Positions 8,410 through 28,782 of a stretch of DNA of 64,000 nucleotides are shown here, one piece after another; the first letter of the stretch is position 1; every line of letters begins with the position of its first letter. The position numbers were made by a program, and so were the translations under genes. The notes below the pieces were generated by a model. The model was not told the DNA's origin. It did no database searches and worked only from the letters and a program-made list of their open reading frames with translations. Origin of the DNA: Escherichia phage EJP2. Location: sequence record OQ411014.1, one strand, 5' to 3'.

Positions 8410-9108
8410 ATGAATTTCGAACAGACAGTACTGAAAGCTGTTAGAGAACACGTAATATACTTCAGTGGTTACAGTACTTTTAGGGGGTATTACATCGTTG
8501 GTTCATTCATGCAATGTAAACGTTGTATCTTCATGGAACCTAAAGATATAGATGTAATTATTGTAACCAATGAGAAAGAAGAAATAGGTGAAAAGGAATA
8601 TAGTTTCTTCATTGAAGAAGCTGATAACATTGAAGTTAATGTTACAGTACTGACACCTGTTGAAAACCTAAATTCTATAATCAGACTCGAACCAAAGTAC
8701 TTTGATTCATTCTGTTCATCTAAGTCTCTTGAATGGGACATTGATGGTATTCGTAATATTTCTAATTCTGAAATCAGGTCTAAGGTCATGAAGTTCTCTG
8801 ACTTAGCTTTCAACAAAGGCAAAAAGAAACTCACCATAGAAAAAGATTACGATGAAGAATTAGGACTCAAGAATATTTGTCATGCTTATCGTTTTCTGAT
8901 TGATGCTATCCGGTTCTATTACCCATCTACACCTATGTTAGAGAAAGAGATGATGGACTTAGGTTATAGCAAGTACCGCAATCGGGTTTATAAAATTTAC
9001 AAAAATACGCAAGGTACACTTGACGATAAGTACCAAGCTATGGTAAAGTACGCTAAACCTGAATACAACAGGATGTGTTCAGAGTTTAGGAAATTGTTCC
9101 CTCGATAA
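8410..9108 (+). CDS. hypothetical protein
   Basis: 232-aa ORF; weak GS...DID nucleotidyltransferase-like pattern only. Confidence 0.45.
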   Translation: MNFEQTVLKAVREHVIYFSGYSTFRGYYIVGSFMQCKRCIFMEPKDIDVIIVTNEKEEIGEKEYSFFIEEADNIEVNVTVLTPVENLNSIIRLEPKYFDSFCSSKSLEWDIDGIRNISNSEIRSKVMKFSDLAFNKGKKKLTIEKDYDEELGLKNICHAYRFLIDAIRFYYPSTPMLEKEMMDLGYSKYRNRVYKIYKNTQGTLDDKYQAMVKYAKPEYNRMCSEFRKLFPR

Positions 9109-24969: not shown

Positions 24970-25122
24970 ATGCCTGAACTACAGAAACATATTGACGCTA
25001 TCATTGAACTTTACTTCAACGAAAAAGATACAGTAAAGCGTTATGAAATTGCAGCAGAAGTACAACATGCACTAGATGAAGCACGTCAAGCTACTGTTCA
25101 TAAAATCACTAAAGGCAAATAA
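24970..25122 (+). CDS. small hypothetical protein
   Basis: 50-aa ORF from ATG 24970, upstream of a strong terminator. Confidence 0.3.
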   Translation: MPELQKHIDAIIELYFNEKDTVKRYEIAAEVQHALDEARQATVHKITKGK

Positions 25123-25129
25123 CGAAAAA

Positions 25130-25157
25130 GGCCCAGATTATTCTGGGCTTTTTTATG
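25130..25157 (+). terminator. hairpin gcccaga/tctgggc followed by T6
   Basis: perfect 7-bp stem, 4-nt loop, T-tract. Confidence 0.8.
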
Positions 25158-25198
25158 TGCTAAATATTTGTACATTCATCATCAACACGGAGGTACAT

Positions 25199-25555
25199 AT
25201 GGGTGTATTCACGAAGTACTGGAAACTTGCTTCAGTACTTATTCTGTTACTAGGCTCATTCTATTCAGGGTGGTACGTAAAGACTCTAAAGGATGGTTAT
25301 GAACAGAATATTGTTAAAGAAGTAAAACAAGAAGTACAGGGTGCATTAAAGGAAGTAAAAGAACAGAACTACCAAAACTACTTAAACACGAAAGAGTATT
25401 TGGATTCTAAACAAATCAATGTAATCAAAGAAAAGATTCCAGTTATCATTGAGAAAGAAAAAGAGATATACTTCCAGTACTGTTTAGAAGAGGAAGGAGT
25501 AGAGGCTCTACGTATTCTACGTGAGAACTCAAGAATTGCGAGAGGTATGAAATGA
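25199..25555 (+). CDS. putative i-spanin (inner-membrane spanin subunit)
   Basis: ATG 25199 with ggagg RBS; N-terminal TM helix then K/E-rich coiled-coil-like region; directly upstream of lipoprotein gene. Confidence 0.5.
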   Translation: MGVFTKYWKLASVLILLLGSFYSGWYVKTLKDGYEQNIVKEVKQEVQGALKEVKEQNYQNYLNTKEYLDSKQINVIKEKIPVIIEKEKEIYFQYCLEEEGVEALRILRENSRIARGMK

Positions 25556-25875
25556 AAAAGTTAATCCTTAGTATTGTATTCGCTTGTACAGTACTTCTAT
25601 GTGGTTGTGCACCAAAAGCATTAGTAACAATGGAAGCACCTATACTGGAGACTGATTCTAAGTTCCTGGAGCGTTGTACTGCTGATACACCAGTACCGGA
25701 AAATCCTTACATTGATAAAGACGGGAAGAAGCTATACAATGGTATTTCCAGCATGGAAGCCTTTCAAAAATGGCAAACAGTATATGATGATTGTGCACTC
25801 AAACATGATGCACTAATAAATGTTATACTAGAATTGCAAAAAAATCGTACAGTACTATTGAAGAAAGAACATTGA
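25552..25875 (+). CDS. putative o-spanin (outer-membrane lipoprotein)
   Basis: signal peptide with lipobox LLCGC; 107 aa; ATGA overlap with the i-spanin candidate. Confidence 0.55.
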   Translation: MKKLILSIVFACTVLLCGCAPKALVTMEAPILETDSKFLERCTADTPVPENPYIDKDGKKLYNGISSMEAFQKWQTVYDDCALKHDALINVILELQKNRTVLLKKEH

Positions 25876-26293: not shown

Positions 26294-26666
26294 TTTTTCT
26301 AATTTGGAATACGTCAGTGCAGTCAAAAATATCAGTACTGAAGATGATATCAAATACGTTACTACTACGATTACGTTCTTGCGTAAAGAAGATAGTATTG
26401 CTCATCTAACTGGACTTGAGAAGACTTTCGCTGAACTCAAATTACAAGAAGAATCAAAGTACATCAAACTTGCTTCGGTGTACACTACGGTTGAAGATGT
26501 TATCCAGAAAGATGAGCCAATTAAGGTGATTTTTTCTGGGATAAATAAAAAGTACCGGCAGGTTACTCGTTCTGAAACGGATGAGAACATGCACATTATT
26601 CTGAATGACATTCAGTTCGTAGATATGGTTTTTGACCGTTCTGAAAATAAACATGTTTACATGTAG
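26277..26666 (+). CDS. hypothetical protein
   Basis: 129-aa ORF overlapping upstream gene. Confidence 0.45.
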   Translation: MIQDIDFSNLEYVSAVKNISTEDDIKYVTTTITFLRKEDSIAHLTGLEKTFAELKLQEESKYIKLASVYTTVEDVIQKDEPIKVIFSGINKKYRQVTRSETDENMHIILNDIQFVDMVFDRSENKHVYM

Positions 26667-26671
26667 TATTT

Positions 26672-26701
26672 TTGAGATGAATGAAAATTTTGTGATATAA
26701 T
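26672..26701 (+). promoter_or_regulatory. sigma70-like promoter TTGAGA-N18-TATAAT with TGTGA
   Basis: ttgaga 26672-26677, tgtgatataat 26691-26701; fires into an ORF-free region. Confidence 0.55.
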
Positions 26702-26704
26702 GTA

Positions 26705-27175
26705 TAGTACGGATAACACCTATGTTGAATGTCTTTGATAAACAGAACCTGATCCACTCGAAAATGTAGAGGGCAGATGAGTAGAACATTCACTACGAAG
26801 TGCAAATGAAACCCGTCAGTAATAAAGCGTAAGTGCGGTCATACAAACGAGACGTAAGACACACGCGACACGGCAAAGCGGCACTATAAAAGCGATAAGA
26901 AAACATATTCGCTCTTGATAGACTTATGAGGCATACTCACCCAGTTGAAAGGGAGTCTCTTTACGGAGAGACAGCAGTATTTGTTGCTGAATTAGCAAGT
27001 ACTGTAAGCGTGTGAGGAACACGACCGTTGTATGCAGACTGTAGTAGCTGGAAACAGGACAACCCGCCAGCGTTGCTACTTTTATTTGTACGGGAAAGAT
27101 CCGTCCAAAAAGTAGTGAATCTACAAATTCAGATTGGTAAGACTACCAGCGTCAGGATATTCCTGATTTTTTTTC
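26705..27175 (+). ncRNA. candidate structured non-coding RNA (about 470 nt), identity unknown
   Basis: no ORF of 60 aa or more on the plus strand; locally GC-richer; bounded by promoter 26672-26701 and hairpin plus T8 at 27153-27175; internal perfect hairpin gtctct/agagac. Confidence 0.3.
27153..27175 (+). terminator. hairpin cagga/tcctg followed by T8
   Basis: short stem and long T-tract at the end of the ORF-free region. Confidence 0.5.
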
Positions 27176-27311
27176 GGCCCTCCCTTGTGGGGGGATGGAA
27201 TTGGATCAACAAACCTCGTCAAGTATAATATGAATAGTATTAGTACTTAATAATTCAAATGAATTGAGAGATATGAGATGAGCGATAGCGAAATCGAATA
27301 TGTCTCAATTC

Positions 27312-27332
27312 TTGGCTTACGCAGTAAGCCAA
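27312..27332 (+). promoter_or_regulatory. perfect 9-bp hairpin in the 5' leader of the 27355 gene
   Basis: ttggcttac gca gtaagccaa, 10 nt upstream of RBS aggag. Confidence 0.4.
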
Positions 27333-27354
27333 CGAAACATTACAGGAGCTTATC

Positions 27355-27765
27355 ATGAGTCAGTTAGAACCAATTGTAGGATCTTATAATATTTTCTTCA
27401 AAGATACCAATGTAACACCAAGCAGTTCATATAACCAAAATACACGTGTAAGTACTTACACAATTGAGCATTTAAGTACTGGCAAGAATTTCAGTACTGA
27501 ATACGGGAAGTACGTCCAGAAGAACTCCGATTGTTTTCAGCTATTTCGTAACTCCCCACGTCAAGATATTTTACTAATCACAAACGAAGTGGAGTTCCGT
27601 CAAAGATCTCTTGATTTCCCTAATGCAGTTCATTATACTATTAGTGATATCGACTTCATCAAAGTACTTGTTCATTACGACGAAGTATCAAAGGTAAGTA
27701 CTTTTGAGGATTTGTCTTTTGATGAAGTAATTGCACTCAAGGATAAACTATATGAAAGCAAGTGA
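27355..27765 (+). CDS. hypothetical protein
   Basis: 136-aa ORF with aggag RBS. Confidence 0.5.
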   Translation: MSQLEPIVGSYNIFFKDTNVTPSSSYNQNTRVSTYTIEHLSTGKNFSTEYGKYVQKNSDCFQLFRNSPRQDILLITNEVEFRQRSLDFPNAVHYTISDIDFIKVLVHYDEVSKVSTFEDLSFDEVIALKDKLYESK

Positions 27766-28291
27766 ACTAGCTGCGATTCTACTCAAGAATCCAGATATGG
27801 AAGTATATACGGAGAATCATCATTATGACAGTTATGATAATGACTCTTATTTCACTACAGAAAAAGTAGATTCAGTAGTACTGTCACCTGATGGTCTTTT
27901 CTTGAATTTCAAAACTATTGACACGGATACTGCACTGAAGACTCCAATGAGTAAACCGAAGTTGCATACGTTCCGTATAAAACTAAAAGATGGTGAGTAC
28001 TTTAGGATTCCAGAGAGTTACCACACTCTCAGTACTTTGATTGATTTCGAAGTTGAAGGTCATATGGTATTTTATGTGTCATGGCATGATGACTGGTGGA
28101 TTTTAGCACCTGAAGATACAGAAGATGAGTTCGTAAAAGAAAAAATATCTTATTCTTCATCTACACATTACACTCCAGATGATGTAGAATGTGTTCAGAT
28201 AATTACTGCACTAGATGATAAGTGGGAACCAATCTACACTGACTTCACTTTGCAAGATGCCATTGAATTTGCCAATAGGAATACTAAATGA
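27752..28291 (+). CDS. hypothetical protein (tandem paralog 1 of 2)
   Basis: start set at MKASELAAILLKNPDMEVY, which parallels MKAKDLIDLLKNDPEQELY of the next gene. Confidence 0.45.
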   Translation: MKASELAAILLKNPDMEVYTENHHYDSYDNDSYFTTEKVDSVVLSPDGLFLNFKTIDTDTALKTPMSKPKLHTFRIKLKDGEYFRIPESYHTLSTLIDFEVEGHMVFYVSWHDDWWILAPEDTEDEFVKEKISYSSSTHYTPDDVECVQIITALDDKWEPIYTDFTLQDAIEFANRNTK

Positions 28292-28782
28292 AAGCTAAAG
28301 ACCTAATCGATTTACTAAAAAATGATCCAGAACAAGAACTATACGTGCAGCTTTCCCGAACAACTTCATGGGATGAAGATTACTGTACTGCTCATGTAGT
28401 GACTGATATTGAGATGACTCCATCTGGTATTTTCATTGAGTATGACTATCATAGTGCTAAGTCTGTAAAGATGCCAGCAGATGCACCATATGTCGGAGCT
28501 TTCCGTATCTTCCTGAAAAATGGTGAAGAATTCATTCCTAATGAAGTAGAAGATTTCTGGCCTAGTATTTTTGATTTTGGTTACTACGCATCATACAAAA
28601 CTGACAACGAATGTGTTGTACTGGAGTATAGTGAAGAATGTCAATACAATCCTGATAAAGTTGTCAGTACTGTAGATGATGTAGATCGTGTTGAAGTTGT
28701 AACTAGCGTTCAAGGATGGAAAACAGAATGGACATCTATGACGTTCCAGGAAGCATTCGAGTTTATGACGAATCTAGAGTAA
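28288..28782 (+). CDS. hypothetical protein (tandem paralog 2 of 2)
   Basis: N- and C-terminal similarity to the 27752 ORF; ATGA overlap. Confidence 0.45.
   Translation: MKAKDLIDLLKNDPEQELYVQLSRTTSWDEDYCTAHVVTDIEMTPSGIFIEYDYHSAKSVKMPADAPYVGAFRIFLKNGEEFIPNEVEDFWPSIFDFGYYASYKTDNECVVLEYSEECQYNPDKVVSTVDDVDRVEVVTSVQGWKTEWTSMTFQEAFEFMTNLE

Follow-up and report, generated by a model that had tools for sequence, protein, structure and literature searches.

What is encoded between positions 26667 and 27354 of the Escherichia phage EJP2 sequence analysed here (64,000 nucleotides of record OQ411014.1; hereafter the window), where one + strand open reading frame (ORF) of 129 amino acids (aa) ends at 26666 and the next, of 136 aa and also on the + strand, starts at 27355? 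The original prediction saw no credible ORF in this interval, noted that it is GC-richer than its surroundings, and proposed a discrete large structured noncoding RNA with its own promoter and terminator, not assignable to a family by eye; a scan against Rfam (GOLLD, ROOL, HEARO, group I intron, RNase P, and transfer-messenger RNA [tmRNA]), secondary-structure prediction, and a search for conservation and covariation in related phages were suggested as checks. The proposal is now supported by conservation, by compensatory changes, and by the absence of ORFs. Comparison with its relatives shows that 26707-27223 encodes an RNA of ~470-520 nt, a member of a predicted family of ~470-545 nt pseudoknotted RNAs that lies outside both Rfam 15 and the literature we searched, and that as far as we have seen is confined to RaK2/121Q/GAP32-like jumbo phages and one copy in an E. 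coli genomic island. We infer that the RNA is transcribed.

The lack of coding content stands up to comparison. The longest ORF within the interval has 66 aa (27028-27228, with a TTG start) and all others are shorter than 40 aa; no ORF is conserved in position or frame across 15 orthologs, and in the ortholog at locus L006 none is longer than 31 aa. The variable columns of the 15 orthologs show no codon periodicity (0.56/0.57/0.53), such that neither an ORF kept in frame and extent nor the third-position substitution bias of a protein-coding gene is present. The difference in composition is also real, with a GC content of 0.425-0.465 over 26700-27200 versus 0.33-0.385 in both flanks. Short 'hypothetical proteins' of 32-68 aa are annotated over the RNA in the GenBank records of Hallingskeid, fHe-Yen9-03/04, Kaldavass, and RaK2 (ORF245), with calls at L002:1642-2038, L004:1740-2042, L009:890-1215, and L170:1545-1751 in our locus numbering. 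Their strand, frame, and extent vary between orthologs and they are probably spurious; dozens of GenBank records would then carry spurious calls of this kind. A mini-ORF following GGGGGGAUG was considered as a coding frame and rejected, as it is shifted by 1-nt indels in Munch, in Hallingskeid, at loci L017 and L040, and in group C of the paralogs described below.

Judged from its sequence, the window is part of a RaK2/121Q/GAP32-like jumbo myovirus, and the phage collection contains no close relative of it. A 20-kb megablast query has its best matches, at ~81-84% over only 7-10% of its length, in Hallingskeid (an Erwinia phage) and in the Salmonella phages Munch, 7t3, and PHA46. The match to the Salmonella-phage relatives starts exactly at the RNA region (query position 8747, corresponding to 26746 in the window), placing this intergenic stretch among the most conserved DNA of its neighbourhood. 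Conservation in related phages is indeed extensive and syntenic: 70 phage records match the RNA region at 67-89% identity, and the hosts of these phages include Escherichia, Salmonella, Klebsiella, Cronobacter, Serratia, Yersinia, Erwinia, Pectobacterium, and Xanthomonas. A syntenic gap of ~650 nt that is either ORF-free or holds only short 'hypothetical protein' calls is present in every relative opened (Munch, GAP32, BF, CBB, XbC2, pEa_SNUABM_49, Yen9-03, and XaC1). Relative to Munch and Hallingskeid the RNA has 84-89% nucleotide identity, whereas the flanking proteins share 30-55%, and in the GAP32/BF clade the gene downstream of the same paralog belongs to a different family altogether.

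The related genomes each carry three to five diverged paralogs of the RNA. These fall into groups that hold fixed genome positions, with orthologs across genera; the GAP32 copies are near 35.1, 98.8, and 261.5 kb, and those of BF near 30, 93, 174.5, and 259 kb. A scan of IMG/VR with a conserved 24-nt motif recovered 33 loci, with up to four per contig, and no second copy was found in the 64-kb window with either blastn or nhmmer. The paralogs have in common a TGnTATAAT promoter and a series of near-invariant blocks, and differ in their peripheral inserts. The blocks that define the family are AGAUGAGUAG, UACGA, AACCCGU, CACGGCAAUGCGGC, GAUAGAC, AAGGGAG, CGACCGUUG, CAACCCGC, GGGGGAUG, and a pair of repeats, R1 and R2; the window copy contains them and matches the nhmmer family profile over its full length (26724-27224, E=2.3e-124). 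The RaK2 copy is far more diverged (E=4e-36). Every copy examined in an annotated context has the same orientation as the genes downstream. When 100,044 bacterial genomes were scanned with CGACCGTTG..CAACCCGC, the profile confirmed no member among the at least 120 matches listed, all of these being chance matches in GC-rich genomes, and a metagenome scan with a loosened 5' motif yielded four true members among the 120 matches listed. The plasmid collection contains no copy.

The conserved element folds, and its pairing is under selection. RNAalifold predicts 58 pairs for 32 distinct copies, 27 of them compensatory, and 106 pairs (33 compensatory) for the 15 orthologs of the window copy. In an alignment of 35 sequences, 85.5% of the cells at paired positions can pair versus 36-43% in controls in which the 3' partners were slid by 1-3 columns, and 55 pairs have changed on both sides versus 21-28 in the slid controls. 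The covariation score is 0.315, compared with at most 0.084 for the slid and 0.145 for the shuffled alignments; none of 500 shuffles reaches it, and 4 of 500 do so for further pair types. In each of seven core helices 93-100% of the cells across the 35 sequences are paired, and 4/5, 6/8, 1/3, 3/4, 2/6, 5/5, and 4/5 of their pairs have changed on both sides; this covariation includes the pseudoknot at the 5' end. The window sequence itself folds on the + strand with a minimum free energy better than that of its shuffles (z = -2.93), so that the covariation and folding checks both favour a structured RNA. Because the frequent alternation of C-G with U-G, seen for example in the C-run/G6 hairpin, would be a C-A mismatch on the other strand, the + strand is the RNA strand, in agreement with the direction of the promoter.

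All helices described here are on the + strand. The 5' pseudoknot domain (26725-26796) consists of helix H1 (26726-26732 with 26786-26792), a hairpin (26749-26759 with 26769-26776) closing the conserved GAAAAUGUA loop, and a crossing GUA/UAC stem. Most copies have CUGAUUGA/UCAAUCAG or CUGAAUGA/UCAUUCAG as H1, and RaK2 has AUGUUGG/CCAACAU; in the main segment of H1 four of five pairs are compensatory and 96.6% of the cells are paired. The GUA/UAC stem (26781-26783 with 26794-26796), which was added by hand to the RNAalifold structure, crosses H1 and is flanked by GA/GA; it is paired in all sequences, with a U-A pair replaced by A-U in the E. coli island copy. The second domain (26800-26884) is formed by two helices (26800-26803/26881-26884 and 26813-26820/26868-26873) with 99.3% and 96.5% of cells paired, both G-C/C-G and U-A/A-U swaps being seen, and surrounds a variable hairpin together with the near-invariant strand CACGGCAAUGCGGC. 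It is followed by a further hairpin (26891-26895 with 26909-26913) in which all five pairs are compensatory and 97.6% of cells are paired.

The perfect gtctct/agagac hairpin described in the original prediction (26955-26961 with 26966-26972) is among the pairings recovered from the 15 orthologs, and it is compensatory, with GUCUCU/AGAGAC alternating with GAUAUU/AAUAUC in relatives. Together with the 12-bp hairpin directly after it (26974-26986 with 26993-27005) it makes up a subfamily-specific peripheral domain (26955-27005), at the place of which other paralog groups carry different inserts. The core resumes at 27022-27071, beginning with CGACCGUUG (27022-27030), which is invariant in the 35 sequences, and containing a helix (27047-27051/27067-27071; 100% paired, 4/5 pairs covarying) that closes a loop with the invariant CAACCCGC (27060-27067). 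A helix joining 27040-27044 to 27121-27125 (3' strand CUACA) has four of five pairs covarying in the 32-sequence fold. Further downstream, the pyrimidine-run/G6 hairpin CCCUCCC uugu GGGGGG (27179-27194) is present in 35 of 35 copies, changes only from C-G to U-G, and is followed by an invariant AUG. RNAalifold also proposed long-range pairings of ACG (26795-97) with CGU (27217-19) and of GAC with GUC (27151-53), all invariant triplets; these were rejected because RaK2 alters one side only (CGUCA to CUUCA) and does not compensate for it.

The 3' part of the element is organized around two 24-nt direct repeats on the + strand, R1ext (AUUGGUAAGACUACCAGCGUCAGG, 27133-27156) and R2ext (AUUGGAUCAACAAACCUCGUCAAG, 27200-27223), which bracket a terminator-like hairpin and the G6 hairpin. 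The last bases of R1ext form the 5' arm of the terminator, and with R2ext the element conserved throughout the family reaches its 3' end: every copy runs on past R1 through the pyrimidine-run/G6 hairpin, the invariant AUG, and a block ending in ...AAAyCnyGUCAr (27179-27223 in the window). The two repeats have one fixed difference (UAAGACUA versus AUCAACAAA), and their variable positions change in parallel among the paralogs, RaK2, XaC1, and the E. coli island copy. Thus the 5' ends of both are GG, GC, CC, GU, AC, or UC; the AyC position is C/C in 19 of 32 sequences and U/U in the other 13; the position after AyC is G/G, C/C, U/U, or A/A; in each of two separate groups both repeats have gone from CGUCA to UGUCA; and RaK2 has ACG..CUUCA in both. 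There are at least five distinct parallel states, and repeats of the same copy resemble each other more than repeats of different copies do (permutation p<5e-5, a figure inflated by shared ancestry).

The promoter placed by the original prediction at 26672-26701 (+ strand) has a -35 hexamer TTGAGA (26672-26677), an 18-nt spacer, and an extended -10 TGaTATAAT (26693-26701), matching 11 of 12 positions of the sigma-70 consensus plus the upstream TG, with a predicted transcription start at ~26707-26709. The TGnTATAAT box matches at the same place in 32 of 34 aligned copies and is also present in the RaK2 and E. coli island copies. The RNA promoters of CBB and GAP32 have a -35 of the 'TGAAACG' class, a promoter class that in CBB is clustered ahead of DNA-synthesis genes (PMC5259590). 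In most family members a hairpin of 9-10 bp and a U-run lie ~5 nt past the predicted start (e.g. L046:4112-4134); the window copy does not have them. In GAP32 this 5' hairpin is annotated as a rho-independent terminator, and it could either stop upstream read-through or stabilise the 5' end.

A hairpin with a T8 tract ending near 27175 was the proposed end of the RNA. A terminator scan does identify an intrinsic-terminator-like hairpin there (7-bp stem at 27151-27167, T8 at 27167-27174, + strand; one such site in 800 bp versus 0.3 expected), which would define a short form of the RNA (26707-27174, + strand; ~468 nt) reaching from the predicted start through T8, but conservation runs on for ~50 nt, to 27223. 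The terminator is present as predicted, and the conserved RNA does not end with it. Furthermore, the orthologs of the window copy and the members of group C have the hairpin and U-run after R1, and groups B and D do not; similar ones can be recognized by eye in the E. coli island and RaK2 copies. The 'terminator' is an optional insert of some subfamilies and not a family-wide feature.

Beyond R2ext there are ~130 nt before the next ATG, and the leader of the next gene (27261-27357, + strand) contains the imperfect palindrome and the 9-bp hairpin noticed at the outset: a 13-bp palindrome (27261-27273 with 27299-27311), a perfect hairpin (27312-27320 with 27324-27332) just 5' of the ribosome-binding site, a Shine-Dalgarno sequence AGGAG (27344-27348), and the ATG at 27355. 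A similar palindrome and hairpin precede the start codon in the aligned copies of relatives, and these may constitute a separate translational control element. In GAP32, BF, and CBB the loop of the hairpin is GGAG, apparently the Shine-Dalgarno sequence itself.

Does this RNA belong to a class already described? At gathering scores no Rfam 15 model matches anywhere in the window, and at E<=10 there are two matches within 26400-27600, both at chance level (snR69, 19 bits versus a threshold of 50, and S15, 15 bits versus 39.5); no family recurs at E<=10 in six homologous loci. The models include GOLLD, ROOL, HEARO, OLE, raiA, group I and II introns, RNase P, tmRNA, 6S, T-box, and riboswitches, so that the failure to place the RNA by eye extends to the covariance models. 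ARAGORN finds no transfer RNA (tRNA) or tmRNA in the window; a tmRNA would have a tRNA-like acceptor/T-arm formed by its two ends and a conserved tag frame. No intron model matches at E<=10, and nothing at the locus could serve as exons to be joined: the upstream ORF stops at 26666, the RNA has its own promoter, and a separate ribosome-binding site and ATG serve the downstream ORF. We found no description of this RNA in the literature searched.

Among the closest likenesses are GOLLD and ROOL (RF01998 and RF03087), large ornate RNAs frequently found in phages and prophages, which are also several hundred nucleotides long, densely structured, rich in conserved unpaired bases, and phage-associated. 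Unlike these, which show no covariance-model match to it at E<=10, the jumbo-phage RNA is multi-copy in each genome, occurs in enterobacterial jumbo myoviruses, has a promoter-proximal terminator and repeat module, and in the window is not accompanied by any tRNA genes. Its combination of size, paralogy, supported pseudoknot, and co-evolving repeat/terminator module is not known to have a counterpart. Large RNAs with so much conserved architecture are rare, and the earlier classes (RNase P, tmRNA, group I/II introns, GOLLD, ROOL, OLE) opened new biology. The family is present in cultivable phages of E. coli, Salmonella, Cronobacter, Serratia, and Erwinia and is directly testable, and the covariation-rich alignment and the several paralogs per genome lend themselves to comparative dissection.

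What the RNA does is a separate question. We tentatively favour a giant promoter-proximal leader that controls read-through into the downstream genes, a role that seems quite possible while falling short of probable. The RNA would be the leader of a transcription unit and act in cis while nascent, the conserved core folding behind the host RNA polymerase and setting the choice between stopping at the embedded terminator and reading on. The core might sense or bind the polymerase, some phage or host protein, or a small molecule. Stopping at T8 would yield the free RNA of ~468 nt, and reading on would carry the polymerase through the second repeat into the downstream genes, with R1ext and R2ext as alternative docking or pairing partners of one site, as in the expression platform of an attenuator. 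Several diverged copies kept at fixed positions are typical of leaders and not of large trans-acting RNAs, and the copies examined point into co-directional genes with no evident promoter of their own. The terminator, too, lies inside the conserved element and not at its end, and the paired repeats around it resemble the competing segments of an expression platform. The conserved leader structure extends to the start codon, which we also count for a role in cis. Lastly, from the upstream gene to the downstream start codon, a + strand scan of the window copy and of two GAP32 paralogs found the RNA's own promoter as the only one of sigma-70 type, with none past the RNA; the RNA may therefore be a leader instead of, or besides, a free-standing 470-nt RNA. 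If the RNA does govern read-through by the host polymerase, it would explain how the very long one-directional gene arrays of these 350-kb phages are transcribed with no polymerase of their own.

Two kinds of known leader offer parallels. The put sites of HK022 and the nut sites of lambda act as nascent RNA on their own polymerase; they lie just past early promoters and upstream of terminators, and head more than one operon. They have the same layout of promoter, structured RNA, terminator, and co-directional genes with no further sigma-70 promoter, but the likeness is one of logic only: put is ~70 nt with two stem-loops and nut consists of boxA and boxB, whereas the jumbo-phage RNA has 470-545 nt, a pseudoknot, and no boxA-like sequence. 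By this analogy, only the layout would be common to our RNA and put-type antitermination, in which the nascent RNA keeps its own polymerase from terminating and needs no protein factors for it. T-box and riboswitch leaders likewise recur many times in a genome, every copy being syntenic with an operon of its own, and likewise have a conserved core, variable peripheral helices, a terminator within the conserved element, and similar segments able to compete for one partner. They differ from our RNA in that it has no Rfam match, its downstream genes encode unrelated hypothetical proteins that differ between clades, two of its subfamilies have no terminator, and no alternative pairing partner was found.

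Several observations weigh against a leader. In groups B and D there is no terminator after R1, such that terminator control is not the whole story, and gene-specific regulation is hard to reconcile with a downstream gene family that, for one and the same paralog, differs from clade to clade. A third segment pairing with both R1ext and R2ext was not found by mutual information or duplex energy. The core of 430 nt, with its many invariant unpaired bases and pseudoknot, exceeds the needs of any known antiterminator or attenuator and looks more like a ribozyme or a ribonucleoprotein (RNP). There is no boxA (UGCUCUUUAACAA, up to three mismatches) on the + strand of 26667-27354 as in a lambda nut or rrn-type system, boxA matches in the whole window numbering 32 versus 34 expected by chance. 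The sigma-70 scan is blind to phage middle and late promoters, and we found no transcriptomes of RaK2/121Q/GAP32-like phages in the literature, the start, end, and read-through all being predictions. Among candidate partners of R1 and R2, the AGAUGAGUAG block, the G-run, the CCUGAU strand, and the 5' strand of H1 were considered and rejected as not consistent across subfamilies.

The main rival explanation is that the RNA stands alone and acts in trans, as a stable ribozyme, an RNP scaffold, or a self-assembling ornate RNA similar to GOLLD or ROOL, ~470 nt in length or, where a copy has no terminator, in a processed form, with host or phage molecules as its targets. We regard this as possible but somewhat doubtful. 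To our knowledge large trans-acting bacterial RNAs are normally single-copy, and the three to five diverged, position-conserved paralogs do not fit this pattern; the element conserved in every copy also goes beyond the terminator, and two subfamilies have no terminator before the next gene. For its part, a trans-acting RNA would account for the many invariant unpaired nucleotides, the pseudoknot, and the GA-flanked stem, for the promoter and canonical terminator that would give the window copy a defined product, for the hairpin that most copies, like stable RNAs, have immediately past the start, and for conservation that is independent of the neighbouring gene families. GOLLD, ROOL, and OLE are large orphan RNAs that form elaborate assemblies (bioRxiv 10.1101/2024.12.08.627333), and PA5oct, a distantly related jumbo phage dependent on the host RNA polymerase, has four ORF-free 'putative lncRNAs' (ncRNA001-004) of 236-619 nt that are transcribed according to RNA sequencing, two of them at 1-5% of phage reads (PMC7318152). 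No structure or paralogy is reported for the PA5oct RNAs, and the two whose loci were scanned, ncRNA001 and ncRNA002, have no similarity to the family by nhmmer with the family profile or by eye. Were the RNA to act in trans, it would be a new candidate for an orphan ribozyme or RNP.

A more far-reaching reading is that of a new class of giant catalytic or polymerase-binding RNA that heads several transcription units in jumbo phages, reprograms the host polymerase or primes replication with no dedicated protein, contains a two-state switch built from the co-evolving repeats around the terminator, and was captured by at least one E. coli lineage, in a defence island, as an infection-triggered switch or decoy. 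We consider this reading unlikely.

The priming of replication can be considered on its own. In this explanation the RNA is an origin transcript that forms a persistent hybrid with the DNA (an R-loop) near the C-run/G6 hairpin and the AT-rich DNA behind it and primes the leading strand, the spaced copies representing multiple origins of a 350-kb genome in the manner of ColE1 RNA II or the promoter-dependent origins of T4. Four to five copies spread along the genome at conserved places would agree with it, as would the 'TGAAACG'-class promoter, the class clustered before DNA-synthesis genes in CBB, the invariant G6 run beside a C/U run with AT-rich DNA after R2, and capture by a chromosomal island, which would fit a hijacked or decoy origin. 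The ColE1 and T4 systems likewise use noncoding RNA made from a promoter of its own, with a G-run towards the 3' part and several origins per genome in T4, but local secondary structure or a DNA unwinding element is all that they require, and a primer RNA has no need of a 430-nt core with such tertiary-type conservation. Cumulative GC skew has no inflection at the locus, which is a weak test as the phage genes are all one-directional, and neither iterons nor an initiator gene are found beside the copies. We think it improbable that the RNA is an origin transcript.

The single non-phage occurrence of the RNA raises a further possibility. A full-length copy (E=5e-101) is present in 2 of 5,426 complete E. 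coli genomes, LR-29-1 (NZ_AP027515.1, ~3,478,970-3,479,585; L168:5931-6546) and NZ_CM130020.1, which are identical over the 1.4-kb region compared. It retains the TGTGATATAAT promoter, all core helices, R1, the terminator-like hairpin, the G6 hairpin, and R2, and its nearest phage copy, at 80%, is at a fourth paralog locus of Serratia phage BF and the Erwinia phages. The island adjoins ffs and bears an integrase; the RNA is situated between a membrane protein gene and that of a 303-aa zinc-finger protein that matches PDC-M01B weakly and for which no phage homolog was found, and a candidate defence system, PDC-M45 (DuOB, DUF488, mSLOG/DUF4326), is a few genes away. The RNA is absent from 38 related islands. 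Since the two copies are identical they reflect a single capture event, and the island copy is therefore a lead and not evidence of function, although it hints at a role in the phage-host arms race.

One such role would be that of a counter-defence or decoy RNA that ties up or misdirects a host factor involved in immunity or in RNA processing, with the island copy acting as a counter-measure or a sensor. The position of the only non-phage copy beside PDC-M45 and the PDC-M01B-like protein is suggestive, as is the preservation of its promoter and of all core helices with one compensatory change. A decoy is nonetheless highly improbable: the two identical genomes represent one event, the 38 related islands have no RNA, there is no direct link to any defence mechanism, and both the conserved positions and the repeat/terminator module are left unexplained. 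Finally, the notion that there is no RNA gene here, and that the interval holds small proteins or a decayed group I/II intron or homing-endonuclease cassette, could draw on the annotated 'hypothetical proteins' of 33-68 aa (Hallingskeid, Yen9-03/04, RaK2 ORF245, Kaldavass) and on the HNH endonuclease genes upstream in Munch and XaC1, but with ORFs that vary in strand, frame, and extent, no codon periodicity, a mini-frame after the G-run broken by 1-nt indels, no intron model at E<=10, no exons to join, and strong purifying selection on pairing, coding or intron-remnant explanations are effectively ruled out.

Some features of the family and its neighbourhood stand apart from these questions. 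A module (A)GAUCCGUCyAAAAUUUGAG is located after the CAACCCGC loop in groups A and C and in the central insert in groups B and D (columns ~395-415 and 560-590 of alignment A3), and the E. coli island copy has it at both places, a distribution that suggests domain shuffling within the RNA family. Downstream of the RNA in the window, three genes (27355-28782; 136, 186, and 164 aa) include two detectable paralogs with 27% mutual identity. Munch and Hallingskeid each have a single downstream gene to which all three are related, and the segment looks like a locally expanding small gene family.

Upstream of the RNA, two overlapping ORFs at 25076-25875 look like a spanin pair. The first (159 aa) has a membrane segment inferred from its translation, the second (107 aa) begins with MKKLILSIVFACTVLLCGC, a lipobox, and a GAP32 gene at the matching position is annotated as an 'Rz-like spanin'. 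Munch (L001:1-606) has a gene for an HNH homing endonuclease shortly upstream of the RNA, and XaC1 (L007:1-482) has one directly upstream, but the window has none there; in XaC1 the small genes flanking the RNA locus are missing.

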